Shown here piece by piece: positions 1-31,700 of a DNA stretch of 64,000 bases. Numbering within the stretch: position 1 is the stretch's first letter; each line of letters opens with the position of its first letter. The position numbers were made by a program, and so were the translations under genes. The notes under the pieces are model-generated. The model saw only the letters and a list, made by a program, of their open reading frames with translations. It was not told where the DNA came from and did no database searches. Source of the DNA: Camelus ferus (lineage: Eukaryota); NCBI RefSeq assembly GCF_009834535.1, contig NC_045696.1, forward strand, positions 49,788,001 through 49,852,000, written 5' to 3'.

Positions 1-1675
1 GTATTTTTTAAAAAAACAAGGTGCATACTCCTTTTTTTTAAAGGACATTTTTTATTATGTCCTAAGAGTGTGGGGATTGTTAGAAAGTTTGAGACTTTGA
101 TTGTCCCCTCCTGGCGTTTGGCATGTTTGACCTAGCTTCACATCCTCATGCTTCAGATCCCATTCAACCAAAATACTGCAACTTGCCTCGGATATTCTTC
201 AAAATAATAATTATTTCCATAATATCCACAGTGTAAAAAGTTGCTGTGTCAACACAAAATATTTTCCTTACACATTATTGAAGCCATAATAGACAGCATT
301 CCTCTGCTACGAGTCAAAATTTGCAAAACATTTTACCAGTGTCTCATTTCTTCCTTCCAACAATCCCGTGATGTATAAAATATCTCCATATTGATGTTTA
401 GGGAACTGAGTGAGGCTCAGCGTTGGTAAGTAGCTTGTCCAGGGTCAGACCACAAGCAGGGCATGTGGTCCAGAGAACAATAAGTTTTTAACTGTTTTAA
501 CATTTTAAAGTAAATAATTTATTATTCCAAACGCTGCCCTCCTTTTAGTGCATTCAGTGCATACTCACGTGTGGGTATTCAAAAAAAAAAATCTGTTTTA
601 AGACTCCTTTCAACTATCATCAAATCCATATATGAATTTGGCCCCAGGGGTCAGTCATTAGCCCCCCAAAGTAGGCGCCCCCTGGTTTACTATGCCCGGC
701 CCTTACCTTTCCTGCAGGAACCCTCACTATCTGTTACCTTCTGTTAAAAGACTGTATCTCCTCACAACTTTTAGGTTCATAAATATCACGTATAAATAGA
801 TAATTGTAAAGTTAAAATGCAGATATTCTTCATGATTGGCATGTTTGAAGATTGATAGTAAATTTGATAACTCAGATTTGAACTCATTGTGACATATTTC
901 AAAAGCCTGAGTTTGGTATAAAAATGGTCAAACCGAAAGAATCTGTAGTTAAGAAGTAACTTTTCTATCAAAGACATTTTTGGGGGAGGCCAAGAAAACT
1001 TTGGAGAAGTTTCAAGTTGGCCAAAATTTTGCCTTAGGAATCTGAAGAAAAAAAAAATAATAAAATCATCAACAGGAGGATTTTTAAATGCGAGGGATTA
1101 CAATAGGGGCTTCTTGGCCAGGATCTTTTTTAAATCGAGAAGGATGCCTTACATGGAAACATTATGTGGATTGGAGTGTGTTTATGTGATTGAGATAATG
1201 ATTCCAACTTTAAAGCAACTTCCCTGTTTACTCTTTGTCTCCGTCTTCTTTCTTCTCCCTTTTCGTGTTCTCCTCAAACTGGGATCTGTGCCATCACACA
1301 GCACTGTCCAGACAGACAAGGGGAGAAACTGCTTACTTGCTTTGTCCACTGGCTGTTCCGCCATCCACATGGCAACCATCATAATAATTTGTAAGTTGTC
1401 CTGAGGCCCCAAGGCAGCAGGCACTACTGTGAAAGGGACAGGTGGATTTTTAAAAAAAATTTTTCTAGGTTCAGTAGTAGACTCCTCCAGTATCTATGTA
1501 TCTTACCAAATGCTAGCCCAAGTCTCTTAGTGAACACGAGTACAAGCTGAATAATTTTTTTTAATTCTGTGTTAAAATTCCAAAGCTTCCTTGTAAATGC
1601 ATACTTCCTAATTTCCTCAGTGACCTGTTTCAGTTAGTCAAGTTGTGCTATTCTGCTTTACATTTGCATTTAAAG

Positions 1676-1816
1676 CACTTTAGAAGTCTGGAAGAAAGGA
1701 AAAAACAGCATCAAGAAGGCCTCTATCTGAGTGACACTTTGCCTCGAAAGAAAAGCACCCCTTCCATATCCCCACATTTCAGCAGTGCTACTATGGGGAG
1801 GAGCACCGCCCCGAAG
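1676..1816 (+). CDS. PHLDB2: PHLDB2 (LL5-beta) internal coding exon, HFRSLEERKK...GRSTAPK
   Basis: taaag|CAC acceptor, AAG|gtagga donor, 141 nt, phase 0/0. Peptide matches recalled PHLDB2 sequence. Upstream exons lie outside the window. Confidence 0.93.
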
Positions 1817-2149
1817 GTAGGACATGGGGAGAACCACGGGCTTCACCTTCACTGAGTCCATTTGTCCTCTTGTTGACTGATGTGCAAAGGCCCTTAAAGA
1901 AAATGCTCTATAATGAACCAGTAAGTTTGCTTGTTAGGCAGACATCGTAATTAAATTGCATTTCCTACCCATTCAGAGGACATTTGAAATTATACACTCT
2001 GGTACCAAAGCACCTACCCAGTCCAGTGGTGAGTAGCATTCACTTCTGTGACACACTCCCATAGCTGCATCCCAGATCTGGAAATTGGAGGATAGAAGCC
2101 CTGGATTCCAGGAATAATAGCAACAAATACTTACGGAGTTATTTCTTTG

Positions 2150-2380
2150 AGCCTGACACTGGGCCAAGCCTTTTATGTGGATTGTTTCATTTTAAAACCC
2201 AACAGCACTATGCAGTGAAAGTACTAATTATTATCATCCCCATTGTGCACGTGGGTAAACCCAGGTGGAGAGAAGCCACGTGGCTGGCCCCCGTGCCCTC
2301 AGCTGGTGGCACTGACGCAAGAATGTGAACCCTTGAGGTGTGATGCCTGAGTCACCTTCACTTCTGTTCTGCTGACTTGC
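2150..2380. mobile_element. MIR SINE
   Basis: attatcatccccatt...gtaaacccagg MIR-core-like sequence. Confidence 0.5.
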
Positions 2381-2984
2381 CCAGGGGTCATTGCAGGAAG
2401 AGGGGAAGGGAAACTGAGAAGGAGGTCCTGAGTGGGACATACTCTGGGATCCTTCCCTTGCCCTTAATCAGAGTAACTTTGTTTTCATCTATTTTATAAA
2501 CTGGCATTCCAGGTATATTTTACACTAAGGATTTTGCTATTTTAAAAGACTGCTGAAACCACAGGGATAATTAATAAGTTTCTCCAGTTGTCAGCCCATT
2601 TGATAACTAGGAGTGGATGGAAATTGGTGCCCTTGTAATGAGTGTAGATCTTCTCTGTCCTTGTGCATGATGTGCATGCATTCTTGACCCCGCATCTGCC
2701 CTCTGCTCCTCATGCATGAAGGACTTTGAGTTGTTCTCTAAGGTGGTTTTGGACAGTGTTTTCCCCATCTGTCTTCAGTCTGGGAATTGCTGCCACTGGA
2801 GGAATGGCTGTGATGTTGAGACTGCTGTGGAGCTCCTGGGGAGGGACATCAACACACGGGATGCAGAGCCTTACCTTCCCTGCCCTCTGTACCAAGATAG
2901 GAGCTGTGGAAACAGCGATGTGACCATGTCCGGAAGGACCACTGGGCCTGCAGTTTGCCTGAATTATTTCCCTGGTTTTCACAG

Positions 2985-3084
2985 GGCCACCTGCCCCTGG
3001 GACAAAGCAACAGCTGTGGCAGCGTGCTCCCCCACTCCCTGGCAACCATGACCAAAGACTCAGAATCTCGGAGGATGCTCAGAG
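2985..3084 (+). CDS. PHLDB2: PHLDB2 coding exon, GHLPLGQSNSCGSVLPHSLATMTKDSESRRMLR
   Basis: ttttcacag|GGC and AGAG|gtatgt; 100 nt, phase 0/1, in frame with neighbours. Confidence 0.93.
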
Positions 3085-6000
3085 GTATGTATGTACCTTT
3101 TAAACCGAGTGTCATGTCCTTTGTCAAGCACTAGAGTTCCTTAGGGAGAGTGAGTCGGAGCAGAGTTGGGGGTCATTAGAGAGGGAATCAACCACTGTCC
3201 TCAACTTTATTCTTCATGTATCCCCTTTAGGGAGGGGTGTGTGTATATATATACTCCTTATTGTCCTAAGATGATTTTTCCCACATACACACATGGCTGG
3301 TACATTTTAAACATACCCATTGTACTTTATAAATTCAATGGAATTCTCAGATAAGAAAGGCCCGTAGAGAGTTACTAACCTTTGTATTTGATTGGGAGAA
3401 ACTAAAAAGAGACCACTGACGTCCTGAGAGATTCCCAGGGCACTTAACTGAGTCACTGCCCTGGTTTGTGGCTGAGCCACTCTGTTTCACCCCTGCTAAA
3501 GGCTCACTGAGCTGACACAGAGCACCAGTGGCCCAGGACAAACTTCCCAGAGGGCTTTTAATGTGGACTGAGCTTTCATTCTATGTGGATGTTTTGGACT
3601 CTCAGCATAGTCTATTTCTTTGTAATAGTACATTGCATTTTTCAAGTAGTCTTTGTGGGACTAGAAGAAAATGCTATAATGCAATTCCAGAGGTGAGGTT
3701 CTCATTGAGAAGATTCGATTTATTGTGTTAACATAGTAAAGTTTAGGTCAATTTATATTGGCCCTGACTTTTGAACAAGCGCAGTGCTAGATAGCAAGAG
3801 TGCACATAAATGACATGATCTTTGCCCTTGACATACTTATAGTCTCATGAGGAAGAGAGACACAAAACATACGATTTCAGTAAACTGTGTAAATGCAATG
3901 ATGGAGGTTTGCCCAGGATGTGAATGGGGATGCCAGCAGTGGCCTCTCAGCGCATTCGTTAGTGGGATTCATACCCTTCCCTCTAAGCAGGCTGGGTTTC
4001 AGCTCAGACTGCTCGGCCTCTTTACTAATGTCACCAGGGAGTAATCACTGATACCATGAGAAATAATGTGTAATTATTAGTGTACGTATAATTAATGGTG
4101 TGTATATGTGTGTGGATAAGTGGAATATATATGTCACTTGAGTGAGGCTTTCATCATCACCAGAAGGGATTTAAGAGCTAACAGAGGCCATGGTATTCAT
4201 ACATGTGGTTTATAACGTGTGAGAGGTTCACAGTGTTAACATTTGAATAAAATACACTTGAGTGAACTTCTCCTTTATTTTTTCATAATTTCTTAATAAG
4301 CTAAAAATATCTCTTACAGTTTATAAATAATAAACAAATGATTATTTTTTGGCTCTCACTTATAACTGTTCACTTGTGGGTCAAGTCTGTTTTCTGTTAA
4401 GGCATTCTTCTGTGATATTTATAAACTTCTTTTTAAGTAAATTTTTTCCCTCTGGCTGAAGACAACAAAGTTTGGGTTAGCCACTATGCCATATTTATGT
4501 TGAAAGCATTTCCTTAGAGAGTAAGAAAAACTAGACTTTTATACCAAATGGATAGATTTGTAAAAATCGAGTTGTTAACAGTATCATATAAAAAGATTCT
4601 TGTGAGATGTAGTGAAACAGAAGGGATGTTTGATCTCTATTTTTCTAATTTGTTTTTCCCTTAAATAATAGAAATCCTCATGTTAGGTTCATGAAGAAAA
4701 AACTGAGCCAATTCCTTAGGTCACATTAGGGACGGACATACCCTCTGGGAAATCTGTTGTCTTTGACTTAGCTTTCGTGCTCTGTTCTTCACTGGTAGGT
4801 CTTTTATCCATCTGAGAGGTCTGCAGCCTCAGTCTTTCCCTGCTGCAGCTCTAAGTGGTGTTCCTCTTAAAGAGTTCCATGTGGTGCTGATGAGACAGCT
4901 CCCCAGTAAACAGAGAACCATCATGTATGTGTTGATCCAAGAGGATGTGATGTAAATATCTTGTGAGGCCAGCCTGCCACCCTTGACTCCCCCACCCAGA
5001 GGAGGAGCAGTTGGGAACTGCAGTTTTTTGAGTTAAAACAGACCATCAAATTGGTGGGATTTTCTACCAGGCCCATACAGCTGGCCCACAAGGACCAAGA
5101 AAGATGAATGATAATTTCATTTGGAATTGTTTCACTAGCACGTGTTGGCTTCATTCAACTAGCAAACGCCAAGTAAAATTTCATTTTTGAAACAAACTGG
5201 ACCTTGCACATTTTCATTAACTCGAGTGAAATAAATCTTAACCATTTTTATGACTTGCACAATTAACTTAAATGAACTATTCTTTTGCTGCTTATTCGTA
5301 ATGGACACATCAAGGACAATGGTGTAAGTATCAGCCTTCCTTCTGTCAGCACTGTTTTAGTAGAACTGACAACGTGATCCTGCCGACAAAGATCTCTGAG
5401 AGCAGGTTTCAAGCAGAGAGCCCAGGAACTCAGCTCTTAAAGTTGTAATGGTTATTGGCTTTTGTACAACTTGTGAACTATTCCTCTGTAAGCTTTAGAA
5501 TGAATGAAATCTTTGTCCTTTTGTCTTCTGTTCAATGCAGGAAAGTCCAAGAAAGGTATGACAACCTCCCTGTGTGGTGTTTTTGTTTCCAGCAAATAGT
5601 GAAAGGTCATTGTCAAGTCACCTTTAAGAAGTGATCAGATTTAAAACTGTACAATGGTGTATTTTTCAGTCTAATGATTATTCCTTTTACACAATAGAGG
5701 AAAATTGTTGCACATTTGCTAGAAACACAATGCTGGGTGCAGCTGCCGTTCATTCATGGGCAGCTGCACGACCCTCTTTGTTTTGTTTTTTTGTTGCAAG
5801 GTCAGACCATGCAGGAAACACGAGTGCTTCAGAAGCATTGTTTTGTAAGACTCAGGATCTAGATGAAGAAAGAGCGGGCCTTGTGATGTATGTCGGCTAA
5901 GTGTCAAACAGGATATTTCTCCTTTATAAAGGCCAGGTGTAAATAAGGAGGCTACATGGGAGGATGGAAGGATTTTGGAGGCTCCAACTTGTTCATTCCA

Positions 6001-9000
6001 TTTAAGCCAGTTTTATAGGAAAGATTCAGCAGAGAGTGAAGAGCAGTCTAGATGTCTGGCTGGAATAAATAAGACGCTTCTTATGTGGCCGGGTGATAGA
6101 GACGGAGGATGTTACAGGACTGACTTGTAAAGTTTGATGGGTTGTGCTTCAAATAATTGAATGGCATGTTGCAAACCTTAGCTCTTAAAAACTATCTGTT
6201 AATGTCCTCTCAGCAAAAAGAACTGTTTCATAGATAGAATCTTGTCTTTAGTCTCCCTGTTTTCTAGTTGACCCATGTGTGCGAAAGGTTTTCTCATTTT
6301 TGACTGTGTGCATGTTTCATAAGCTTACTTTTGTTTTTTTAACTTCTTGAGTTCTTCTCTATAAACTCAGATTTAATCTAAAACTGTGAACATCTTACCT
6401 CATCAAGCTGGTATTGTGACTAACCCCGTCAACGACTGCATGCTGAAGTGTCTGTTTTCCTGTCCCTTTGCCATCCTTTTTGATCTTGTATCTTTTTCCC
6501 TTTCACTGTCATCCTCCTCATTCCTGACTTGTCCTGCGCCTTCGTCTTCCGGCTGTGGACTGTGGGTAGGAAGAATGAGTTTCTCAGCAGGTGAGAAATG
6601 GTCGGAAATACCCATTAATTTTATCCTCTCAAACCAGATTATAATTTGGTCATCTAATTTTCTGTATTAAGGCCCAGATAACCATTTGAAGGTCTATAAC
6701 ACACATTTGGAAAATACTGGCGAGATTATGTATCCCACAATGGTTAACTCACAAAGGACTTTTCAGATCCAATTAGCTAGAATTCATAAAGATGAGCATT
6801 TTGAAAAATAATGATAAATGGGCTTTGCACAGCCAATCTGTTGGCTCTTCCAGGGCAGTGAAGAGAGTTGAATTGGCTTGGGTTCCATGTTTGTGCTGTG
6901 CTTAGCGACCAGCCTCGGGTATTATCAGGTCTCACTTTATAAAGCCTATAAAATACCGCATTCAGACAGACATTTCTGCCTGGATAGGAAGGATTTAGAG
7001 CATTTACAAGGCCTTTTTTCCTTTTTAGTTGCTGTCCCACTGCTGAATGTTATTCTTGCTACATAATTTTGAAACAAAAACAAAAACCAAGCAGTCTCAA
7101 GGATTTGGGAAAGTCTCAGGTTTTTTTCCAACCCCCTTGCTTTGCCCCACCCCAAACAGTAGATGCATTCCACGTCCTTATTTAGCCACTAACATGGTTA
7201 GAATTTACAGATGAACAAGTGAATACATTCAGTGAGTCTTTATTTTGTGACATCTGAATACCAAGCAAATGGGGGTGAACAGGATACACATGTCCCCCTC
7301 CCTGATAACTTATCTTGAGTGGAGGCTTAATCAGCTCACAATGGTACTGATGCTACCTTACTGCACCAGCAGCTCTTCCTGGGCCCCTACCTGGGAACCC
7401 TCCCCCAGAATCCTGATCTCCTGCAGGGTTTTTCTGTTGAAAATATCTGTCTCTTTAAAGGGCCGGGACAGAGCCTGGATCCTAAAGCCAGCTCTTATGA
7501 GTCACACTGGTGCAATTCTGGGGTCCCAAGGAGGAGGTCCATGCCCTCGTTTGTAATTGCAGGAGTAACTTGGTTTTTTGGGGGGATTGTTCAGGAGGGA
7601 GGAGGCTCAGCCAGGTGACAGCTGAGTTCATCGTGATCAGTTGAGTGTTGCCGGTGGGGGGAAGGGAGCAGCTCATAAGATGGACGTTCAACACACTTGG
7701 GTCCACAGGAAACAAAAGTCCTGCTTTGGGAAAGCTGCTTGTTAGCAGCAGCACTTCCCATTCAGGCTGCCATGAAAACGCAAGGTGTTCATCCTACCAC
7801 CGGAATGATGGAAGGTTCCCTCGGACTGAGAGCAGCGAAATACAGCGAAACACAGAGGAGGTGACCTAGGGGATTTAGGGTCACAGTCCTTAGCACGGTA
7901 CACATTGTAACACGGCTGTCCCTTGTGCCTGCATCCAAAACATTGGCACCATTTTAGTTTACTGTCTACTTCTCATGAAGGTGGTAAGTTCATTTTCTTA
8001 TTTTGTGATACTTTTGGGAAAAAAAAAATTCCTAGAAGATATGAGGAGCAGGGCATACAGTTGTTTTAAGAAGAAATATATTCACTCTCTTTTCTGCTTT
8101 TCCCGAAAGTGTTCGTTGCGTTGTAGGAACTGACTTTTCCTCATTGTGAAAAACTGAAGGGAAGGGAGGTTTGGCACATGTCATCGCACAGGAGATAATT
8201 CTTGCATGTTTTTAATTATAGGGCTGTCCTTTAGGGATTTGTTTTTCATACTAAAACCAGGACATGTCTCTCATGTCATTAGTGCCAGTGTGAGGTTTTC
8301 TTTGCCAACAAGCCTTTTTGGAAAACATAAGGAAAGATATGTGTATGACCTTTTCAAATAATTTCTGGTGTGTTTTTCTTGTCCCCCCTTTTTCCATGAT
8401 GAATAATTGGAAACAATTTAAAAGGAGCAGTTAGTAATTCCAAAAGTTCAAGTATCAAAGGTAAATATTTGAATATTGAATTATTTTGCCATTCTTAAGG
8501 GGATAAAAGGCACATGCTCCACGCTTATGAATGCACTGGCTTCGTGTGATGCTTTATGCATTAATCATTGCAATTAATGACATGCTCTCTAAAGTCTCAT
8601 GGTGTGCTTTCACGTTTTGCATGTTTCCTGAGCAGAGTGATATGTAGTTTTTGCGTATGGGTGTTTGTTTATCATTTATAATTACATTTTATATTTAAAG
8701 AAACTTATTTTCCCAGAATTGCCTTAATGTGTACTAACATTTTCACGTAGATAATCTAAAACTACTCCAAAATACGAACGGCATGCAAATTCCTCATGGA
8801 ACTAAAATCATCTTACAGTTTTAGTTTTGGTTTATAGTGCTTTGTTAAAGCATCATGGATTTGGCTTCTGTTTTTAAATGGAAATATTAGTCAACAGCTG
8901 AGGAAGTTGTTTGGAATCACTTGTCTTCTTTTGCCCTTTGGCCTTCTTTTTGACCATTTCATTACTAATTAAAAGCCTCATTGAGAGGTAGATTGAGCAC

Positions 9001-10058
9001 AAGAAAACGGAAAATTCAGATGGTCCAATTGTAAACTCTTAATAATAAGTCTAGTAGGAAATTTGATCAGATTTGATTTGATTGCAAACTATGGTACCGG
9101 CTAAAGAAAACATCTTTTTAATGAATCAAGGGATTTATTTATCAGTATGATCCCTAATTCCTGAGTACATGGTAAATAGAGAATCAAAAGGAAGAATAAT
9201 TCAATGTGTGATGCCCAAAATCAGCTACCAGAGAGCAAGCCATAGCAATAACACAAATGACCGACATGCCAGCTGACCAGGTACAGGGTAAGGGAAACCC
9301 CTCTTACTTATGGTACTTTTGCTTCTATTAATGTGATCCCTACATTTTCATATGGTTGATACCACCAACTAGCCAAAGGCTGACGGTTAAGGTGGAAAAA
9401 AAAGAAAGCCATATATGTGGTAATTAGGAGGACCACAGCCATTGGAAGGGTTATGGACTCTGCATGTCTTACATAAGGTAGTTGGCAGACAAGGCAAATT
9501 GGGGGGGGGGGGGGAGAATGAGAAAAATGTGCAGTTTGCATCTTAACCAGACTACAAGTGTTCGTGATGATAGGAGTGACATGCAGGTTTCTCAAATCCT
9601 ATACCTAGATGGTCCAGCTTCTGTTTTGTGACCAGATTGAGTAGCTCTTAAGTTGGAACACCACTGAAGAAATGACTGCCCTAAGACCCTGGTGTTGCTT
9701 GTCATGAGGAGTCATCTTGATTCACTTAAACTCAGCTATTTCTAGAGGATTCGGGGCCTTTAATCGTGTTCTGGGTGTGTGTGTGTGCTGATATATTATC
9801 CTCGGTTGTACTGAGAAGTGGAAATGACACAGCAGTGTCAAGTGACCCGCTGACAAAGACCATCATTCACAAGGCCGGTTCTGGGAAACGCTTGCTTGCA
9901 CTGAGCGTGATGCTGTCTCTTTGATCTTTTTGGCTTCAAAACAAATTAGACCAAGGCCCCAGTTTCATAGGCAGATGTTTTGGGTTGCTGGTTTATGTCT
10001 TAGAAGATCTAAGACTGAAAAATGAGACATAGTAACATATTTATGGCTCTTTCCTTAG

Positions 10059-10266
10059 GATATAATCACCAACAGATGAGTGAGGGACAAAGGCAGAAGT
10101 CTTCTGAATTTTACAACCGCACAGCATCCGAATCAAATGTCTACTTGAACAGTTTCCACTACCCAGATCACAGCTACAAGGACCAGGCCTTCGACACGCT
10201 GAGCCTAGACAGCTCTGACAGCATGGAGACCAGCATCTCTGCCTGCTCACCTGACAATATCTCTAG
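10059..10266 (+). CDS. PHLDB2: PHLDB2 coding exon, GYNHQQMSEG...DTLSLDSSDSMETSISACSPDNIS
   Basis: ttccttag|GA and TAG|gtaaga; 208 nt, phase 1/2; FDTLSL motif typical of the PHLDB family. Confidence 0.95.
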
Positions 10267-11052
10267 GTAAGATGTACTCCTGGGAAAGGTTTCTGGTTTG
10301 GAAAAGCACCTACTGGTTTCAAAAAGTAAAGCCATCAATTTGGGACAATGCATATGTACAAGCCCAAATTTCAGAGCATAAAGAGTCTACGATATAGAAG
10401 AAGGTTGACTGTCATGGTGGCCTTTGAAAGTAGTTTTTTCTCTGTATCCCATGTGATTAATCCATTTTCTCCTCTGCTCTGTTTCTCTACATTTGACTTC
10501 ACTTGCATACTGTGCTGCAAAATCGATTTACCTCTGTTGGTTGACTCCAATCTTCTTTTGGACTGCTTTTGATTCAGTAAAGAAGTCATTTCCAGTGATA
10601 CAGGAAGAATTTGAAGGCTGTCTTGCTCTTATGTTTGGTTGAAAAGAAGGCTTTAGCTGCTTTGCATATTAAAATTTTTGTAAGGATTTAAACATTCATA
10701 TTTGTGTTCATACTTTGAGGAAAGCAAAGGTGGTCATGTGTGATGATGGCCAAAGGTGCATCAGAAATACAGAGCTAGTGAGAGTATTCTTCCTCTTCCA
10801 AAGCTTGCGATGGTGCCCAGCTACCTTTAAAGTCAGACCCCAGAGCCTGGCATTCTAGGACAGACCCAGCTCACTAGTCATTCTCTCCTCCTGATACACC
10901 TCACAGAGCTTCTTATTCATTTAGAGGGCAATGAATTCTCAGACTTCCGTGCCTTAGACATTATTGGTTCTAGCCCTGGGATCACACCCTTTGTTCATTC
11001 TTTTATTTATATGCTCATTCATTCCACACATTCTTGTAGAGTACCCTACCAT

Positions 11053-11251
11053 TAATGGCGAGCTGAAGTTGGCTCAGACTGGCTGGCAAGCACCGAATGT
11101 GCCCGCCTCCTCCTGACCCAGGGATCGGTGATGTCATGTCGGTAGCTGGAAGCTGGTCGTGCAGGCAGTATTCACTCCACATAAGTCGACATTTGCTACC
11201 TGTCAGGGGTTTTGTTCTCCTCCGGAGAGCTGGTTGACCAGCGCACCGCTG
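11053..11251. mobile_element. MER63-like hAT element
   Basis: aatggcgagctg...ccagcgcaccgctg termini; internal gtgatgtcatgtcggtagctggaa. Confidence 0.6.
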
Positions 11252-12529
11252 TCAAGAGTCAGCTCATCCTTTCTTGTGTTTATCCACTCAGCCTCTCCTC
11301 ACTGAGCACTGGGAAAAATATCTTCTCATCTCCCATCCCCTCCCATTTTAGCCTGGAGAAATTCTCTGCATCCTTCAGGCTCAAACTCAAGTAGGAAACT
11401 CGTGAAAACGTCTCCCTTTCGGGCGTTGTTGTTCTTCCGTGTTTCCATGGCATTTGATGCGTTTTCCTATTATATCACAGATCGCATTGCAGTCTACAAT
11501 TTTTTTTCAATAATTAATCAGTGCAGTCCTCAATGCCAAGGAGGATATCTAATTAATTATCTTTTGTTTTCTGCACTCAGCAGAGATCTTGGCATATAGT
11601 AGGCACTCAGTAAGTGCTGGCTGAATAAATACCTCAGGGTGTAGTAAAATGGACATATTTTCAATTTTGATTTTTCTTCTTTGATTTATTTCACTTGGCT
11701 GAGAGCGAGCCATTATGATTTCAACACAAGAAATGTCCAGTATTCAATAAGTGGTCATTGAGCACATGTCTCTCTCTCTCAAGTGACAATGTCTAGTTGG
11801 ATAGTGGCCATCGAACGAACTTCCCTGCATTGTAGTGAAGCCACAGGCTGGGGCAGGAGCACTCATGCCCTTTGGGCTCCTCCTGACAACTGATTGTGCT
11901 AACTGAAGCAATCACAGAACTCTCTCGGTCCTGGTTTGCTAATCTGCTAAAGGGAGGGATGGTTTCTTAAATGCAAGGGGATGATGGATTTTAAAACATG
12001 GTGGTAGAAAATTACCATCCTGTATATAGAATTCCTTTACAAAAGTTTGAATGATTTGTCCCCCACCCCCCAAAAAAAGGAGTAACAGAGACAGAGGGAA
12101 AGTAGTATCAGCGAAGTCGACTCAGCTTCGGGTTAGTGTTTCATAAATAAAGAGTGTGAGAGACCCACATGTAACCAGATATTATAGCTAGGAAATCTGG
12201 GGAGTCGGGGAGAAGAAAAAAAAGATAGATGCTGTATTTTGTGGTGAATAGAATACGGTGTGTTGTAATTCTGACATCATAATGGGTGAAATAATGGTAT
12301 TACTGGGTATATCCTCTCAGAGAAGGAAAGGAGTTCCTGGGGAAAAACACTCAAGCGACCATGAGAATTATATATATTGCTTCTTGTCGCATGAAATGAC
12401 CTAAATTTAAGGAGGGAATTATGTAAAAATAAAGAATAATTTTTTTTTGCTGCCATTATTATTTAATGTTAGAAGGGTTAGTATTTCACTCTATTCAATG
12501 TGAGAAGATGGAATATCTCACTTTTTACA

Positions 12530-12870
12530 CAATCTCGTGTGACCGTTTTAGGCAAGGCACTCGAGCGTGTGGCGCTGTTGGGCGTCACACCGCCTGCGGC
12601 ACTGCGAGCGCTCCGGCCGCGCGCTGCTTCCGCGAGGGGCCTGAGAGCCGCCCGCGTGCCGGCGGCGGAGGCCTTGAGGGGTTACTCACAAATGGCAGTA
12701 AACCGACCGAATGGACCTGCTACTTTTGAATAACAGGATGCAGACGAAAGTCAGCAGCCCAGCAACTATTATAAAATGATGACGGGAGGAATAAAGTTGA
12801 CGTTAGGGGAGCACAGCGCGCAGCCGTTCCGTTCCCAGGGTAGTGATCTCAGAGGGACTTCCGGGTTCTT
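12530..12870. promoter_or_regulatory. Small intronic CpG island / promoter-like element within PHLDB2
   Basis: About 22 CpGs in about 135 bp (12536-12670) inside an AT-rich intron; ETS motif ACTTCCGG near 12857; CRE-like TGACGTTA near 12798. Confidence 0.6.
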
Positions 12871-15800
12871 AGGCACTCTGCACTTTGGAAAGTTGTTATT
12901 TTGAAAGCATCCGACTACTCTACCCTCTTCCCAAATGATTTTGAACATTTTATAATAGTATCCCTGTGGTGAACTCTTGATAGTTTGACCTTTTTTTCCT
13001 ATTTTTGAGCCATCTTTAATAAGTAAATACATTCTATATGTTTTCCTATCATCGTGGTTTTCTCTCTCCATTATCTGCTCCCGCCTCTTCAACCCCTCCA
13101 GAAATTAAAAGTAAATATGTGTCCCTCTAAATGATCGTTCCCCAGACCCACCTGTCATATTTCATGGTGGTGAGAGCAGCAGTGCAGCAGTGAATACAGG
13201 AAATTACCTAGAAAGGGACCACTTCAATTAGATTTACCAAACGTTAGAAGTTTAGATCTAGAGACTAATTAAGCACAGTGGCCAGCAAAATCTTAACTTA
13301 TATTTATCAACTTACCCACTTAACTTTTTCTTTAAATGTTTTCCAAAAATAGAAAATGAGAATGACCCCAGTGAATGTGCCTTGTTAAGAGGACAGCATT
13401 ACTGCAGAGTGGTCTTTCCTGGCAGGTATCTACATGTGGTCATTTTCTTTCTTTCCCCCAGTTTATTTATTTTTTATTGAAGTATAATTGACTTACAATG
13501 TAGTATTAATTTCCAGCCATATCATTTTGCATAGTTCTTCACACGCGTGACCCAGTGCTGCTAGCAGTCATAGATAATCAATCACCGTGGTCAGAAATTA
13601 CTAATAGTATTACTTGAAACATGCCATCAGATTCTCTGAATGTCCAAAAATTGAAGCCAAAGTGGAAGATGCCTGTAAAAGGTCTAGTTTAAATAAAAGG
13701 GAGAAAGAAGAAAAACAAGCATTTCTCTTCTGTGCCACCATTTACCTAAAAAACATTCATGCTGCCCTAAGATAAGCTTGTACCCATTTTTATGATGGGA
13801 ATTAATGTGACAAACATCAGGGAAGTGGATAGTAAGAAGCTAATGTTTCGAATGTGTGTTAGGACAGCACATTCTTAATGGGAACTTTTTGAAGATAAGT
13901 AGAAAGAAATAAAACTAAAAAATTTCCTCTTTCTAGGATTTTTTAAAATTATGTATTAAAATATCCTGAAATAATACGTGTTTTAAAGAGGTAATTCCAT
14001 GCTGAAATTCTAGCAACACAAACTTAGTCTTGTGGTTTATTAGGTCACAAAGAGCTACTGGTAGAATTACAGAATTACTCAGAGTTGTGGGTACCTTCAC
14101 TTTTTGTTGAGACATCATTTTTGTGTCTACCAGAAAGTTACTTGAGTCACACAGTGTTTTTGCTTTTTCAGCATCATTACTTACACTGTACGCAATCATA
14201 AAGCTAAGAAATAGGGTCTTGGGTCTTAGAAAACAGCAACTGAAAGTCAATTCTGCTTAAAGTCTCCATTCTGCTAACATGACTGAATTAGCTCATAGAG
14301 TATTGTGTTCTGAATCCCACCTGCAACAATACGATATCATTAGCACTGCTGTTGAGCCCTGACCTTGTGGTCGTGCTCCGAGAAGATACTGAGGAAGTTG
14401 GTCTCTCTTGATAACTGTTACCTACCAGCAGCTTGTGTGTGGAATGGGGACAGGACTGGGTATGGGGTTGAGGGCATTCGGGGCTGAGCTTGGTTTTAAG
14501 AGATACTTCAACCAGGATTTCAGGTACTTCTAATCTTTTCCTTTTAGGCAAAGATTTGTATTCTTTCTAGGGAGTCAAAACCCAGTATTTGCGTTTTATT
14601 CTAGGGCATTCTTTCAGAAGAGATACAGAAAGCCAGAGGATTTCAGAGGAGGGCAGCTAACTGTTAAAGGGACCAGATAGTCTACTGACTAGAGAGAGAT
14701 TAGATGTTTTATAAGGAGTAATAATTTGCTTAGCCTGAAAAAGTACTTGAGAAGATGAGTTGAAAATTGATGGTCTGGGACACTGGCTCTTCATTTAGTG
14801 GCAAACTGGTGCACTGAAGGCAGTCTGGGAGAAGTTTTATGACTGTATGGAGAATTTTGTTTTGCTGCATGCTTTACGTTTTGCTTATTTATTTATTTGT
14901 TGTATGACTGTTCTTTTTTGCTTTTTTCCTTCCTTTTCCTGTTTTTGCCTTTGCCTCTAAAGTGAGTATTCTAAAAGGCAATTCAGATTTTGCTGAAAGA
15001 TATTACCCAGCACTGAAAACTAAATCCGCTATTTAGATTCCTTTTCCCTTGAGTGAAGTTTTGTTTTTCTTTATGGCTATGGTTTTTACCAAAGTTGGTC
15101 ACATCAAAAAGTAATCGTCAGTTGATAAAATAGAATATTGGCTGAGTAGAGAAGGTAGGCAAAACTAATTATCTTTAGACCATTAATGGCCAAGTGATTC
15201 AGTATCAGCGCTCACATATGAGATCAGAAATGTGTGCCTGTCTTTTGAAGAAGGTCAGAAGTTGGAGCAATGGAAGGAAGCATTACCCCTCTTGTTATCT
15301 GGATGGGCTGGAGAAAGTAACTATGATGTCTTGTGCTACAGGTAATGAATGCATCACACAGTGTATCTTCAGCGACTTCCAGCTCTTGCTTTGCACGGGA
15401 GGTGCGAGCCAGATGGCATTTCCTTTGTTCACGGCCATGGTATTGACAAGCCTAGACTTCTCCCTAAGTTCCTGTGGCAGTCCCATTTACTTTTCGCTGC
15501 AGGTGCAACTCTGACTCCCCAAAAAGCATCAGATAGTGGCAACGTAGCATCATAGAGCAGCGAAAGTTTTGCTGAGTAAAAGTGGTTTACGTGTCAAGGA
15601 AATATTAAAATCAACAGTAGCAAAAGTGTAGCTGTAGAGAACAAATAGGTAAGTAGGTGTCCATAGGTAAAAACTAAGTTTTTTAACAAAATAACCAAAG
15701 TAGCTTTTAAAGTATAGAAGGTATAGTTTTTTAAGTGACTTCAGGTGCTTAAAAGGTATGAAGTTATGAAGAAATGTAGACATGTACTTTCTATCAACTG

Positions 15801-16827
15801 TTTTCAGAAAATTCAGACCATTTGGGAAAAAAATTAAGACATTTATGGAAGCATTGCCAAATAAGCAGATTGAGTATAATTGGCAGAGAATTAACTGGAA
15901 ATATTATCAAATAAATAGAAAACACCCTGAAAAATTCTCAAAACATGAACAGAAATATTTAAAGATGGATAAATATTTGAAAACTTGCCCCAGATATGCC
16001 CCAATAACACATATATGAAAAAACATGTACTGAAATATTTATTTCTAACCAAGTTATTTCCAAGCAGTTCATCTGGATTGGCTTCCTATGGCCTCAACAT
16101 CATACTTAGGCCAGTGAGTGGAAGCTGTTGGAAGACAGATTTTTGATTCCGCATGAGTATCAGTATTCTGACGATGCTGTCCATACAATGGAGGAACAGG
16201 CACAGTGAGTTTCTTGTAACTAACAACATTCAGGCACAAGCTAGATGAATAATGGGGGTGTCATAGAAAGAACCAAGGGACAGATGGGGGTTAGCGTATC
16301 AGTGAGTGTTTTGTTTTTTTAATTGTTTTTTAAGACCTGAGACTTAGTGAAACTCTAATTATTTATTTCTAAATTAATAGGAGTCATAAGCCATATATGT
16401 ATATATGAAATGTCACAGACGACACTACAGAACATAAACGTGTCCTGTGCTGTTGAATGACCTGCATGTTGTCTTAGGCTTTCTCAGTTGAGCTGATGAA
16501 ATTTGTCCCCTTTCCATCCATGAGGTCAGATAGTCTCAATAAAGGGAAATGCAAATTGCTGCACAGAAATTAAAGTTTTTTCCCCTTAATCCTTGCTGGT
16601 TGAAGAGAACAGAACTTATCCTTTTGTACGTCCCCCAACAGCTCATGGAAGTATGAGAAATAAATTGCCTTGTCCATGTCTTTCTCAGAAGAAAACACCT
16701 GTCTAAAAATTGGCCCAAGATAACCCTGCAGAGTGCAGCCTAGTTGTTAAGCCTCTATTGAGTCAATGTTACTAAGGCTGTCCCTCTCCTTGACGGATGC
16801 TTTTTGTGATGAGGCTGGCAGTACTGA

Positions 16828-17490
16828 TTTTTTTTTAACTTAAATTTTTTAAACAGTTTTAGGTTCACAGCAAAATTGAAAGGAAGGTACAGAGATTTCC
16901 CATATACCCCCTGTGCCCACACATGCATAGCCTCTCCATTATCAACATCCCCCACCAGAGTGGTACATTTGTTACAATTAATGAACCTACACTGGCACAT
17001 CACTATCACCTAAAGTCCATAGTTTATGTAGAGTTCACTCTTGGTGTTGTACCGTCTACGGATTTGGACAAATGTATAATGTGGTGTATCCATCATTATA
17101 GTATCATACAGAGTATTTCCATTGCCCTAAGAATCCTCTGTGCTCTGTCTGCTCGTACATCTCTCCCTTCCCACCCCTCACTTCAAACTATGGGCAACCA
17201 CTTATCTTTTTACTGTCTCCGTAGTTTTTTCTTTTCCAGAATGTCATATAATTGGAGTCATAAAATATTTAGCCTTTTCAGATTGACTTATTTCACTTAA
17301 TAATATACATTTAAGGTTCTTCCCTGTCTTTTCATGGCTTTATAGCTCATTTCTTTTTAGTGCTGAATAACATTCCATAGTCTGGATGTACTAGTTTATT
17401 TATCCATTTACCTACAAAAGGATATCTTGGTTGCTTCCAGGTTTGGCATTTATGAATAAAGCTGCTGTAAACATCTGCATGCACAATACT
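16828..17490 (-). mobile_element. L1MC-type LINE-1 3' fragment
   Basis: T-rich start, aggttcacagcaaaattga...aaagtccatagttt...ggacaaatgtataatg motifs; ORF2 C-terminal remnant (WKQPRYP) on the minus strand. Confidence 0.8.
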
Positions 17491-18958
17491 GATTTTAAGA
17501 TAAACCATATGTCCTGTGTTACTGTGGTCATTTATCTCTTTAAAAGAACTCTTAGCCCTGTGTCTGAAATATCCTAGGGTTGAGATGATCAACAATATGA
17601 TTTGGGGAGACTGACTATACAACAATTATCTTATTCATTTTATGTGAATTATTTTTTATATGAATGGGTATAGCAAACGTGTACCCTCCTGTGTGTGCCA
17701 GGCTCTGTGCTATGGAGGATACAGGGACAAAAGCCTCTCTGTACCCAAGAGAGTCTAGAAAAGAAGGCATATATTTAAGTGACTAGGCAAGTGTACATGT
17801 GTAAGAAACAACATTGGTTCTCTGTGGCTGCAACATCAGAATAAATAATTTTGACCCAGGCTATGGTCCTTTTTTTCCAAAATAGTCAAATAAAATGTAA
17901 ACAAGTGAAATATAAAATATTTTGTTTAGTGCTCAGCATTTCCAAGTTCTCCTCTTTCTCTTTTAGTTGCCCTAACTGTTCTTGCAGCTCTCACTCCCCT
18001 TGGTTTTTTCCTTCACTTGTCTGTGTGACATCTTTCTCAAGGTGCATTTCTCTTAAAGCCTTTGGATCCCTGAATGCAGTTTCTTCACTGGCATGGTGAG
18101 TGGGCTTAACTGGCAAAACTGGCCACCACCCTCCTCATGCACCTGTAGGAGAAGTCATTTTTTAATTGGCCATTTTAAATCACCATTAAATAGACATTTA
18201 TATTTATATTTAATGACATGAAAGTACTCAAATTATGTTTTTAATGTAAAAAGGGCAGATTAGAGGGTTATAGTCTGATCCCGTTTTCTGAAGTAAATTT
18301 CATAGGTGTAAACAGACATACAGAAAAACTGCTGAGAAGTTAGCTCTGAAAGATAAGATTACTGGTACTTTGATTTTTGTGTGTTATGTTTTTATGCATT
18401 ACTAAAAATGAGCATATTTTAGTTTTGCGATAAAACATACATTGCCATTTTGAAAAAAAAAAAACATTCAGGAAATAAAATGTCCACATGCATAAAGATT
18501 CAGTGAAAAAGCAACTGGTGACTCCTGTTCCCAAACCAAATAAAGTGACTTCCAAATTTAGGGACCATCGACATAGAACTTTGGTGGTGATTTAGTTGGG
18601 TCTGGGCATCTCTGAATAATTAAACTAATGGGAAAGCCTCCCTTGGGCCAAAAACTTTCAGGCTTTGGAGGAAACATTTTGAGAACACACTTTATAAAGT
18701 TTGGCTTTTGTTTATTCATGAGTAAAGCACTTTACTTGGTGTTATTTCCCTCGCCTGTATTTTTGTTGCCTAAGCTGATTTAAGTTAGATTCACCTACAG
18801 TTTTCAGAGCTGAATTGACTCGCCTCCTCAGACCAGTGATTCTTGTAAGTAACATCCTTCAAATTGTGTTGGATTTTGTCATACACCTTTCTGGACCTGT
18901 GTGTGTGAAGAGACAACAGTCAGAAGCTATATCCTTAAAAGGCTTTTGTTTTCTTCAG

Positions 18959-19049
18959 TGCCAGCACTTCGAATATTGCCCGGATAGAAGAAATGGAGAG
19001 ACTTCTGAAGCAGGCTCATGCGGAGAAGACCAGGCTGCTTGAATCCAGG
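18959..19049 (+). CDS. PHLDB2: PHLDB2 coding exon, SASTSNIARIEEMERLLKQAHAEKTRLLESR (coiled coil)
   Basis: ttcttcag|T and AGG|gtaggc; 91 nt, phase 2/0. Confidence 0.95.
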
Positions 19050-19632
19050 GTAGGCCTGATGTCTGTGTGCCAGGGGCCGGTGATGTGGTGGTTCAGGATG
19101 CCCTGCACTTGACATTGGGGAACTGCCCTCAGGCCTCGATAAGCAGTGTGATCTTGGAGGAGTCACTCAACCTTTCTTGGCCTCATTTTCTCATCTGTAA
19201 AGTAAGGGGGTTGGAGGGATGATGTCTGAGGCTCTTTACCGCACTACCATTTCTCATAGTGTGAAAGACATGTAGTGTGGACAGAAACTGAAATGAGTGT
19301 TTTGTGTGGTATCTTCCCTCCAGTGGCCACTTTTTTGCCTGCCAAGGGGTAGGAGGAATGTTGTGTCTCTCTGCATCCTCCCTGCCTTGTCAGCTTGCAG
19401 TAACTACACTATTGCAATATTAAAATCCCATGTCATTGTGACTGTATTTCAGGCCAGCAACTGAACTTCCTTAGGAATCCCCCCAAATGCCTGTGCATCC
19501 TGCCTGAAAGGGCACCTCCTTTCCTCTTCTAACTTCCCTGTGTGCTTCCTCTGCAGCCTTCAGCCAGGAAGCCACAGAGCAACAACAGGAATTGGAAGGA
19601 CCCATGGCCTTCAGTTAGAACATGGCCATCGT

Positions 19633-19727
19633 GGGGGCGGGTGTAGCTCAGTGGTAGCATGCCTGCTTAGTGTGCATGAGGTCCTGGATTCCATCCCTAG
19701 TACCTCCATTGGAAAAAGAAAAAAAAG
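19633..19727 (+). mobile_element. tRNA-derived SINE (camelid Vic-1-like)
   Basis: Pol III A box (tagctcagtggt), degenerate B box (gattccatcc), A-rich tail, degenerate TSD ending gccatc. Confidence 0.8.
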
Positions 19728-20093
19728 ACAGCCATCAAAAGAAAGGCTAAATGTCATGACTAGTGTTGGGTCACAATTAGCGAGGCTTTTTAAAATTAAA
19801 AATGGGAGAGTTGTGGTCATTAGTATGAAATGACTGAATATAGTCACAAGCTGGGTTTTCACTTAATATTCAATTGTTAGTTAAGTGTAGTGTCTGCATT
19901 TCTACATTGGATGACTTTGGGAGCTATGGGAGAGGTGATTACGGGTGTTTTAATCTTGGTTCTATAATGTAAGAGCTTAGGCTCTAAAGCCAGGAATTGT
20001 CTAGTGAGAATTATTTTTCTGTATATATTAGTTGGAATCATTCAGGTATGTAACCAGTATGTCTGAAAATTCGTTCTGCAAAATGATATTTAG

Positions 20094-20240
20094 GAACGCG
20101 AAATGGAAGCCAAGAAGCGAGCTCTGGAAGAAGAAAAACGACGCCGAGAACTCCTGGAAAAACGATTGCAGGAAGAAACTAGCCAGAGGCAGAAGTTAAT
20201 TGAAAAGGAAGTAAAAATTAGGGAGAAACAAAGGGCACAG
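20094..20240 (+). CDS. PHLDB2: PHLDB2 coding exon, EREMEAKKRALEEEKRRRE...KQRAQ (coiled coil)
   Basis: atttag|GAA and CAG|gtaggt; 147 nt, phase 0/0. Confidence 0.95.
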
Positions 20241-22095
20241 GTAGGTCAATCTGGATGGATTGGAGTAGGTTGCCCCCTGGTGGTCGTTCTGTAGAAGACG
20301 GTCATGCTGTGTTTTGAGGATGCCTCTGGCTGTGCTGACTATTAGCCCTTGACTTGGAATGGGTGAGAGAAAGATGTGCATTAGTGGGCAAAAAAATGTA
20401 TGTTTATTTCAAAACTCCTTGGGAACTACTAACAAAATGACATTTTTCTTTAGTTATGTGGAACCTTTTGATGGGAGGGGCATTTTTGCTTCTACCCATT
20501 TTGGGGTGTATGTTTAAAAGGAGAATGTGTTTTGACCAGCTTTGAAAATGCAGCTAGATTCATTACTGAAAGCAAACACAACACCCAGACCAAGTTGGGT
20601 GTTGTATTTGTTTTAGCTGAGAGAGAAAAGATTCTATTAAGCCATCTTTCAGGAACAAGCACTCCAGAATGGGATCCTTTTACCAGCCTGGTTTCTTGGA
20701 GGTCGCATTCATGCTTTGGGTTTTTTTTTCCTTCTAATCTCTGTGTTGTCACATGTGTCCCCTTTGCTGCACCAGTCCGCAGACATGTGCACAGGATTCC
20801 TGGACTCAAGCAAAAGTCAGGAAGACCAGCCACTTTGTTTAACTTCCCATCTCAATCATAGTCCAGTTTGAATCTCTGTTCTTATCACTAGAACTGCTAA
20901 CATAATGTATGTTCTCTGAGAAACTGAGATAAAGCTTTGCTAAGAACCATGTAATTTCAAATTCAAATTCAAATCATATTACCAAGGTTTACTAGACTCA
21001 AAGGTAAAAGGTACCAATGCCCCTTTTCCTTACGGTTGCTGGCAGTTTGATCGGTACAGCAGAGAGAGACTGTCCTTAAGACTTTGTGTGCTTTGAGGTA
21101 TCAGTAAATCCATGACATCTGTCTAGAGTCAAAGTGCCATAGAATCAAAGGCAAAATAAAGGAAAAATACAAAGTAAAACTTACTCGTTTTATCTCATTA
21201 TGCCAAACCTCTGTCAGATTTTGATTTGCAGTAAAGGTCATCTGTGCCCATTTGGTATCTGAGGCCAAACCAAAAGGCACAAGTTCTATTTTAATTCTAA
21301 TTCTAAGTTTTGTTTCCAAGATATGATTACGATATTTTTCCCCAGGGCAAAGGGGTGAGATAATGTAACAGAATAAAATAAAAAGGCCATTTTAGAAATA
21401 TTACCCGTGGCGATAGGTACTCCCTAGGTTAGGTGAACCCCTGCTCCAGCCAGAGTAAAACAAAAGACATCTTTGTACCCCTCTTCCGTGTCTGGTCCTG
21501 GACAGCTCATTGGGTACAGCTTTGATTCCACTTCTTCCCTTATTTCAGCTTTGCTTTTCAAAACATACGTCTCTGCTTTCAGTTTCTATCAGTGTATGCA
21601 GGCTGCCACGTACATACATACTTGGGGATCTGATGGGGGTTGTACTTACTAAATAATGTTCAGTGAATTGTGTCATGTGTGAGGTTATTTAAGGAGAACT
21701 ACTGTTAACTTGTGGCAGGGAGAGCTCCTGGAAACTGTACCCTCATCTGGAAGCAGCAGCCCAGATAACTTCATGCTTCATTTCCCAGTGCTTTTAAGTG
21801 ATAAGTGCCTCTCTTAAAGCTAAAATAAATGGCATGTTTCCTTTTCTCATCTGGCCATTTTAAGGAATAGAATCTGTTGGCCTGAGTTTATCCACATTTT
21901 CTTCCCCTATCCTGTAGCATTCTTAAAATGCTGTCCACTTTTCAGATTCCAAATGACAATGTTAATCTTAAGTTATGATTATCACGTGGGCATTTTAACA
22001 CCTTGGATTTTAAGTCCATTTTCACTTCTAAACATCTGTGACCTGAAACAAAACAAGTGACGAGCTGTGGATGAGATGGGCTTGTGCTTTTCCAG

Positions 22096-22315
22096 GCTCG
22101 ACCTTTGACCCGCTATCTGCCCATTCGGAAGGAAGACTTTGATTTGCGGAGCCACGTGGAGACTGCTGGCCACAATATTGATACCTGCTATCACGTGTCA
22201 ATCACAGAGAAGACCTGCAGAGGATTCCTCATCAAAATGGGTGGAAAAATTAAAACTTGGAAGAAACGTTGGTTTGTGTTTGATCGGAACAAGCGCACCT
22301 TCTCTTACTATGCAG
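22096..22315 (+). CDS. PHLDB2: PHLDB2 coding exon, start of PH domain (CRGFLIKMGGKIKTWKKRWFVF)
   Basis: tttccag|GCT and CAG|gtgggt; 220 nt, phase 0/1; basic phosphoinositide-binding PH signature. Confidence 0.97.
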
Positions 22316-26221: not shown

Positions 26222-26341
<120 letters not shown>

Positions 26342-26936: not shown

Positions 26937-27077
<141 letters not shown>

Positions 27078-30959: not shown

Positions 30960-31700
30960 GATAGGATTGCTCTCCGCGCTTCCAATCCTGGAGTGTTTAC
31001 CCACCGAGAAAGCAGCCTACCGAGACGTTCAAAACGTTCCAAACTGTCATAGTCAAAACCTCCACAGCCGAACAGCCCAATAGCGAAAGGCTGGGAGGAG
31101 CGAGGACGCTCTGCGCATGTGCGCCCTCCGGGTGGTGAAAATCGTACAGGCGCTGTTTACCAAGTTCCGCCTTCCAGCCGGCGGCGCATGCGCAGCCTCG
31201 GTTCCTGAGCGCTGTGCGCGTTTCCGTAGGTCGGCGCGGGGCGAAAGGACCGCTGGGAAGATGGCGGGGCTGGGCAAGGCTGTTGTGGCGGCTTGGGAAC
31301 CTTATCGCAGGTGGGGCTGGGCGGCCGTCTCCTTCGGTGTCCACCGTGGTCTCGGCGCGTTGCTTGCACGGAAGCCCGAGCGGGCGCCACGGTGGCTCCC
31401 AGGTCAGTGTCCGAATGTCTGGTGTAGGACGTGTTCTTTCGAGCATCCCTAGTTCTGTCAGTTCCTGTCCCATTCGCTTTTGGCGCCACATTCGGAAATG
31501 CTGTTCTCAGGTTCTCGGTACCCCAGTTCTAGGCGCTTTCGACAGTTCTGTGAAGGCTGTGAGGAGAGCTCTGCCGGGCCCTGGGGTATCCTGGACAAGC
31601 GGGGCGGTTGATGGAGTTACTCTGCAGTCGAAGGATCCTGCTCTCTCCCGGCCTCCCCTGCGTGAAGTGCCAACAGAAGGAAAATTAGATGCGTATTTAA
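30960..31700 (+). promoter_or_regulatory. ABHD10 CpG-island promoter with NRF1 and YY1 motifs
   Basis: CpG-dense. TGCGCATGTGCGC 31112-31124, GCGCATGCGCA 31184-31194 (NRF1 consensus), AAGATGGCGG 31258-31267 (YY1, overlapping the ATG). Confidence 0.85.
31261..31402 (+). CDS. ABHD10: ABHD10 exon 1 (Arg-rich mitochondrial targeting peptide)
   Basis: aagATGG Kozak context; MAGLGKAVVAAWEPYRRWGWAA...RAPRWLP; CAG|gtcagt; 142 nt. Confidence 0.92.

Follow-up and report, generated by a model that had tools for sequence, protein, structure and literature searches.

We analyzed a stretch of 64,000 nucleotides of Camelus ferus DNA (contig NC_045696.1, positions 49,788,001 to 49,852,000; hereafter, the window), whose + strand carries the 3′ half of PHLDB2, the gene for LL5-beta, followed by ABHD10. 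We consider it likely that one PHLDB2 intron contains three optional small exons in tandem, and that this trio, together with a 141-nt cassette exon upstream of it, is a real feature of the gene. The trio and the cassette exon are already included in the public annotation of this and many species, and are therefore not new. An initial annotation of the window had proposed five in-frame small exons and three truncating ones in the region 1216-20871. Two of its in-frame candidates, 5541-5555 and 6570-6590, occur as inserts in annotated isoforms and belong to the trio, whose third member, 8425-8460, was absent from its list. The other six sites most likely resemble splice signals by chance.

The three small exons share a single 7-kb intron (3085-10058) and, like the other exons and candidate sites described here, lie on the + strand. 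The most upstream is a 15-nt alternative microexon (5541-5555) that encodes (G)KSKK, with the 3′ splice site caaUGCag and the donor AAG/GTATGA. It is followed by a 21-nt alternative microexon (6570-6590), which encodes (G)RMSFSA and has an AG-free zone of 119 nt and the donor CAG/GTGAGA. The last is a 36-nt alternative exon (8425-8460), which encodes GAVSNSKSSSIK and has an AG-free zone of 86 nt and the donor AAG/GTAAAT. By direct reading, all three exons are flanked by AG and GT, are multiples of 3 in length and contain no stop codon in the phase of the intron. Each also begins with GA and ends with G. Given that the intron is in phase 1, a split codon G/GA, encoding glycine, is rebuilt at every junction, so that any subset of the exons stays in frame and leaves the adjoining residues unchanged. 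Microexons are defined, in the parts consulted of two papers, as strongly conserved exons of 3-27 nt (PMC7935315, PMC12626424). The 15-nt and 21-nt exons fall within this limit, while the 36-nt exon exceeds it and is only a short cassette exon.

The 15-nt exon is preceded by a good pyrimidine tract, with UGC immediately 5′ of the AG. The presence of UGC near the 3′ splice site is a hallmark of SRRM3/4-dependent microexons, and among all sites considered here, only the 15-nt exon has it beside the 3′ splice site (-5 to -3). This arrangement would fit control of the 15-nt exon according to the SRRM3/4-dependent pattern. In the 21-nt exon, the proximal 3′ splice site is poor, pyrimidine runs lie distally within the AG-free zone, and the nearest TGC is about 35 nt upstream. 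The proximal 3′ splice site of the 36-nt exon is weak and purine-rich (uuuaaaag), with a pyrimidine tract about 30 nt farther upstream and no TGC in the 100 nt upstream. These weak proximal sites and long AG-free zones are what might be expected of regulated exons with distant branch points.

Annotated proteins show the exons as optional inserts. We searched a collection of 5.8 billion proteins with exon 10059-10266, which gave 2770 matches, and analyzed the best 120 of these 2770. Every named protein among the 120 is PHLDB2, many of them as numbered isoforms. Inserts were read between the anchors SESRRMLR and GYNHQQ; 114 proteins were readable, and one duplicated artefact was dropped, leaving 113. 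The three small exons occur in six combinations in these proteins. No insert is present in 69 of the 113, the 7-residue insert (GRMSFSA and variants) is alone in 10, and the 12-residue insert (GAVSNSKSSSIK and variants) is alone in 11. A GKSKK-type insert is combined with the 7-residue insert in 5 proteins, the 7- and 12-residue inserts are combined in 11, and 7 proteins have all three. Counted exon by exon, the insert GKSKK, GKSRK or GRSRK occurs in 12 of the 113 and never without the 21-nt exon, the insert GRMSFSA, GRMN[SF]SA or GRINSLA in 33, and the 12-residue insert of the 36-nt exon in 29.

The joined translation of the three exons in the window, GKSKKGRMSFSAGAVSNSKSSSIK, is identical to the insert of Camelus dromedarius isoform X11 (P0086). 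The GRMSFSA peptide of the window is also identical in two Camelus isoforms, P0086 and C. ferus X8 (P0070). The same inserts at the same junction are found in annotated isoforms of more distant mammals, such as Ovis aries X12 (P0082) and Marmota marmota X18 (P0021). With regard to the three real exons, the window does not differ from these annotated mammalian isoforms; the other candidates of the initial annotation occur in none of them. The species whose proteins bear inserts are camelids, ruminants, rodents, a lemur, carnivores, moles and a bat, and the 21-nt insert is also present in Ensembl-derived UniProt entries for Canis and Ursus.

The 141-nt cassette exon (1676-1816), recognized by direct reading as an open reading frame (ORF), is in phase 0-0 and encodes 47 amino acids (HFRSLEERKK...STAPK). 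The initial annotation had treated it as a fixed landmark. It is optional, being present in 51 and absent in 49 of 100 full-length annotated isoforms. With another cassette exon farther upstream, the gene has five optional exons, which occur in 17 combinations among the 100 full-length isoforms.

Part of this arrangement is old. A HMMER scan with Camelus isoform X8 against 1.84 billion representatives, of which 150 are listed, matched PHLDB2 and PHLDB1 of many vertebrates. PHLDB2 entries of the elephant shark, Callorhinchus milii, differ from each other by GKSKK alone (P0277 and P0278 vs P0195; UniProt A0A4W3GVH0, A0A4W3GVH5 and A0A4W3GVG5), and GKSKK is optional there at the same K/G junction as in the window gene. 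In the cat shark Scyliorhinus torazame (XP_072370538), GKSRK is followed by a 12-residue relative of the 36-nt exon, of the form G-A-x-S-N-S-K... (GASSNSKGIRRK), and a relative of the same module in an axolotl reads GAVRHSRGSRKK. Given that the shark inserts occur at the same junction, the 15-nt exon predates the split between cartilaginous and bony vertebrates. The 36-nt exon probably also predates this split. By contrast with GKSKK and the 12-residue module, the 21-nt exon had counterparts only in mammals among the 150 representatives listed.

PHLDB1, which encodes LL5-alpha, resembles PHLDB2 in having small alternative inserts at the homologous K/G junction. A sturgeon PHLDB1 has a 9-residue insert, DPSSAETPK, in one protein (P0129) that is missing from another (P0144), and a conger PHLDB1 has a 17-residue insert (P0130). 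The sequences of these inserts are unrelated to the PHLDB2 modules. Given that they occur at the homologous junction, the intron position seems to be prone to optional small exons in both paralogues.

We now consider the remaining sites of the initial annotation, which had envisaged a module of eight sites, associated with AG-free pyrimidine tracts, that edits or removes the C-terminus of LL5-beta. The phases of the host introns, derived from exon ends, are 0 for 1817-2984, 1 for 3085-10058 and 2 for 10267-18958. All eight sites were confirmed at the positions given, with the dinucleotides and frames claimed for them. The five in-frame candidates have AG upstream, GT downstream (GC, as claimed, for 14963-14977), a length that is a multiple of 3 and no stop codon in the phase of the host intron. 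The AG-free tracts had been described as about 70-140 nt long. This description suits six of the eight sites, namely 6570, 2722 (72 nt), 14963 (108 nt) and the truncating sites 1302 (84 nt), 10578 (142 nt) and 20776 (72 nt), but not 5541 (40 nt) or 18042 (52 nt). The proposal that small optional exons edit the linker before the C-terminal domains is borne out by the isoform combinations, while removal of the C-terminus by truncating exons is unsupported.

A higher density of such tracts than in the ABHD10 introns had also been suggested. Defining a tract as an AG-free stretch of at least 70 nt with at least 62% pyrimidine, we counted 10 tracts on the sense strand of 1216-20871, or 5.1 per 10 kb. 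The corresponding density is 2.5 for the sense strand of ABHD10 and the region downstream, 2.5 for the antisense strand of 1216-20871 and 3.0-3.1 for either strand of the whole window. Thus, the density is higher, but the excess is weak and not significant (Poisson P(X>=10 | 5.9) = 0.077).

Complete candidates can also arise by chance. Our chance model rested on the AG sites, on either strand, that close a tract AG-free over 50 nt or more. The window has 114 of them, and depending on the phase, 6, 9 or 7 lead into an exon of at most 60 nt that is in frame, has no stop codon and ends at a usable donor. The model therefore predicts about one complete candidate in 1216-20871; three are seen (6570, 14963 and 18042), of which only 6570 is real. 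We also ranked sites by a crude, frequency-based splice score. The null set comprised the 811 stretches of 3-60 nt in the three introns that run from AG to GT in phase and without a stop codon. The real exons of 15, 21 and 36 nt rank 1, 15 and 82 of 811, respectively, and the unsupported candidates 18042-18095 and 2722-2742 rank 4 and 22. A scan for a pyrimidine tract, an AG and an open frame here recovered two real exons along with six sites that lack support, and the real exon whose signal is weakest escaped it.

The three unsupported in-frame candidates were compared with the proteins that span their host junctions. Candidate 2722-2742 encodes DFELFSK and has a weak donor, AAG/GTGGTT (score 2.0); none of 53 spanning proteins has an insert at the 1816/2985 junction. 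Candidates 14963-14977, encoding SEYSK, and 18042-18095, encoding RCISLKAFGSLNAVSSLA and with the donor ATG/GTGAGT, would be inserted at the 10266/18959 junction, where none of 116 spanning proteins has an insert. By its sequence, 18042-18095 is the best decoy. A 41-residue ORF through it shares three 5-residue words with no protein of the 5.8-billion collection. DFELFSK occurs in none of 279 proteins compared. SEYSK was found once among them, in an unrelated part of a Callorhinchus protein, and this occurrence lends no support to 14963-14977. An origin of 2722, 14963 and 18042 from repeats was rejected, each being single copy in the 2.09-Gb assembly.

Results for the proposed truncating sites at 10578 and 20776 are similarly negative. 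The 3′ splice site at 10578 and the alternative terminal exon 20776-20871, which would encode 31 amino acids followed by a stop codon and thus lack the PH domain, predict tails that occur in 0 of the 279 proteins, and a protein search with the ORF through the 20776 tail returned no match. For the 3′ splice site at 1302, the predicted peptide was looked for in the 279 proteins only, and occurs in none of them. Taken over all these sites, no candidate or tail peptide occurs at its own junction in the 279 proteins; those of 2722, 14963 and 10578 (7, 5 and 12 amino acids) were compared with these 279 only, being too short for a database search. The C-terminus is normal in 112 of the best 120 of 2770 proteins. 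The eight odd C-termini do not represent alternative exons: in P0006, P0026 and P0030 the last exon is modelled with a read-through or a frameshift, P0005 is a read-through after the exon that ends at 19049, and P0001, P0002, P0009 and P0010 are unspliced genomic ORFs.

We also counted motifs of the splicing regulators RBFOX (UGCAUG) and QKI (ACUAAY). The window contains 40 UGCAUG hexamers vs 37.7 expected. On the + strand, 12 of the 24 sites in the window lie in 1216-20871 (binomial p = 0.037). Within about 300 nt of the small exons, the 21-nt exon has the hexamer at -261 and -133, and the 36-nt exon has it at -222 and +158. ACUAAY is not enriched in the window, with 58 found vs 71 expected; an ACTAAC precedes the 21-nt exon by 151 nt. 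Three UGCAUG hexamers occur within 55 nt (2664-2718), shortly before candidate 2722; the 141-nt optional exon ends about 850 nt 5′ of them, and the exon that begins at 2985 lies about 270 nt 3′. This group could be a cluster of RBFOX sites.

Several points weigh against our reading of the small exons. For this animal, the evidence of their use consists of annotation models and sequence identity, and RefSeq XP models are predictions that can be transferred between species by homology. Among 24 sequencing runs, 18 contain the stretch, and 5 of these are RNA on record. Since a 10-kb stretch that is mostly intronic has 62-82% of its words in the RNA runs, presence in them is uninformative on splicing. 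It could be proposed that the three exons are intact but unused in this species, and that the isoform models merely propagate annotation by homology. All six transcript-assembly proteins (lgn: P0003, P0004, P0008, P0013, P0040 and P0089) lack the inserts, which agrees with this proposal. However, AG/GT borders, frame and peptide identity to the Camelus models are kept in all three exons, and the same alternative inserts are reported by independent pipelines (RefSeq and Ensembl/UniProt) and in very distant species. We regard disuse as very improbable, and retain the interpretation of the trio as optional exons. Other points concern the extent and control of the array. Given that the isoforms were drawn from the best 120 of 2770 matches, rarer isoforms with other inserts may exist, and given that 18042-18095 outranks two real exons, sequence by itself neither proves nor dismisses this candidate. 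PHLDB2 has no entry in the searched microexon supplements (PMC7821500, PMC12626424 and PMC9303857, six files of the last being outside the search), and its absence from these neural and retinal sets argues against membership in a neural SRRM4 programme. Finally, the effect of the inserts on the protein is deduced from sequence.

At least one of the six unsupported sites might be a genuine exon that annotation has missed, being rare, confined to one tissue or specific to a lineage. The likeliest such exons would be 18042-18095, 2722-2742, which lies behind the three UGCAUG hexamers, or a poison exon that begins at 1302 or 10578. The high summed splice score and GTGAGT donor of 18042-18095 and the hexamers upstream of 2722 favor this view. 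It is also in favor of a missed exon that the three in-frame candidates are single copy, and so are no obvious repeat debris, and that the real 36-nt exon ranks low, showing that weak sites can be real. On the other hand, inserts are absent from the 53 and 116 annotated proteins that span the host junctions, the ORFs through 18042 and 20776 are unmatched in 5.8 billion proteins, and about one candidate of this kind is expected in the region by chance. Moreover, 14963 requires a GC donor, and the 18-residue peptide of 18042 is hydrophobic and contains a cysteine, unlike the serine-rich linker. On balance, we think a missed exon unlikely. The more specific proposition that the array is larger than annotated, with at least one more genuine exon restricted to certain tissues (18042-18095 and 2722-2742 being the best candidates), appears less likely again. 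Least credible, and in our judgment extremely improbable, is the original proposal of a single combinatorial module of eight sites, under the control of SRRM3/4, RBFOX and QKI, by which the C-terminus of LL5-beta is both edited and removed. Two of its sites are real, and UGCAUG is mildly enriched on the + strand of the region. By contrast, six sites are without support, the excess of tracts is not significant, UGCAUG is at chance level window-wide, ACUAAY is below expectation, and, among the best 120 of 2770 proteins, every C-terminus that is not normal is an unspliced read-through or a frameshifted model. The reading that we prefer remains an array of three small exons and the 141-nt cassette exon.

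The small PHLDB2 exons can be compared with known microexon systems. Like the exons of the SRRM3/4 microexon programme, they are tiny, frame-preserving, deeply conserved and located in a disordered region, and the 15-nt exon shares the UGC at -5 to -3. They differ from that programme in that the 36-nt exon is longer than 27 nt, and in that the 21-nt and 36-nt exons lack a nearby UGC. A microexon of DAAM1 is similarly conserved and, according to the part consulted of its description (PMC12056172), lengthens the linker of a cytoskeleton-associated protein. However, the DAAM1 case as described there is a single neuronal exon with a demonstrated function, whereas PHLDB2 has three tandem exons that are known from sequence and annotation.

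A full-text literature search found no paper that discusses the small exons of PHLDB2. In the only paper text found to mention both PHLDB2 and microexons, PHLDB2 appears solely in a passage on fusion transcripts. Among the searched files of PMC7935315, seven files of that paper being outside the search, supplement 6 lists PHLDB2 events of VastDB only of 75, 129 and 133 nt. In supplementary data from the same paper, as far as consulted, PHLDB2 expression is given as 1.48 in mature neurons, which is low against 24.53 in progenitors.

The structure of the surrounding gene was determined by direct reading of the sequence and confirmed by tblastn of annotated proteins. The closest annotated full-length proteins to the window gene, as judged by tblastn and protein names, are Camelus PHLDB2 isoforms. 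The intron that precedes the trio is separated from it by a 100-nt exon (2985-3084; GHLPLGQSNSCGSVLPHSLATMTKDSESRRMLR), which was identified as an ORF and by tblastn of Camelus isoform P0055 and is followed by the phase-1 intron. Downstream of the trio is a 208-nt exon (10059-10266; GYNHQQMSEGQRQKSSEFYNR...SPDNIS), which matches P0055 at 100% by tblastn and is followed by a phase-2 intron. A 91-nt exon (18959-19049; SASTSNIARIEEMERLLKQAHAEKTRLLESR), in which a short coiled coil begins, and a 147-nt coiled-coil exon (20094-20240) come next. Further PHLDB2 exons lie at 22096-22315 and from near 26241, and the last coding exon is 26937-27074; direct reading and tblastn agree for all of these.

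Two observations concern the exon at 10059-10266. Annotated proteins differ by one serine (QRQKSEFYNR vs QRQKSSEFYNR) at window positions 10104-10109, where the exon contains a TCT TCT repeat. This difference is probably a species indel rather than a splicing difference. Two of the transcript-assembly proteins, P0003 and P0004, start within the intron, at about 10022-10058, immediately 5′ of the exon, and are correctly spliced downstream; P0004 reads MRHTNIFMALFLGYNHQQ... These starts point to either an internal start, giving a short isoform that has the PH domain and the coiled coil, or slow splicing of the 7-kb microexon intron.

ABHD10 is on the same strand as PHLDB2. Its exon 1 (MAGLGKAVVAAWEPYRRWGW...) starts near 31.26 kb, within a GC-rich stretch at about 31230-31460, and the distance from the PHLDB2 stop codon to this exon is about 4 kb.

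The three modules of 5 (GKSKK), 7 (GRMSFSA) and 12 residues (GAVSNSKSSSIK) total 24 residues, and correspond to residues 890-913 of the 1210-residue Camelus isoform P0086, in a linker that is 21% serine. Residue 988 is the first of the exon with the coiled-coil sequence IEEMERLL, and residues 1103-1199 form the PH domain according to Pfam. The short coiled coil thus follows the modules at a distance of about 75 residues, and the PH domain at about 190. At this position, the exon array would alter the length, positive charge and number of serines of a flexible linker in LL5-beta.

According to the part consulted of one paper (PMC8918791), which contains nothing on LL5-beta splicing, LL5-beta aids in tethering microtubule ends and the secretion machinery to the cell cortex. 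In the serine-rich linker, optional modules jointed by glycine could tune the positioning or regulation of its PH domain and coiled coil, and part of the module set has been retained since sharks. If the larger array were real, the LL5-beta linker would be tuned by at least four optional modules, in an array that dates to the ancestor of jawed vertebrates.

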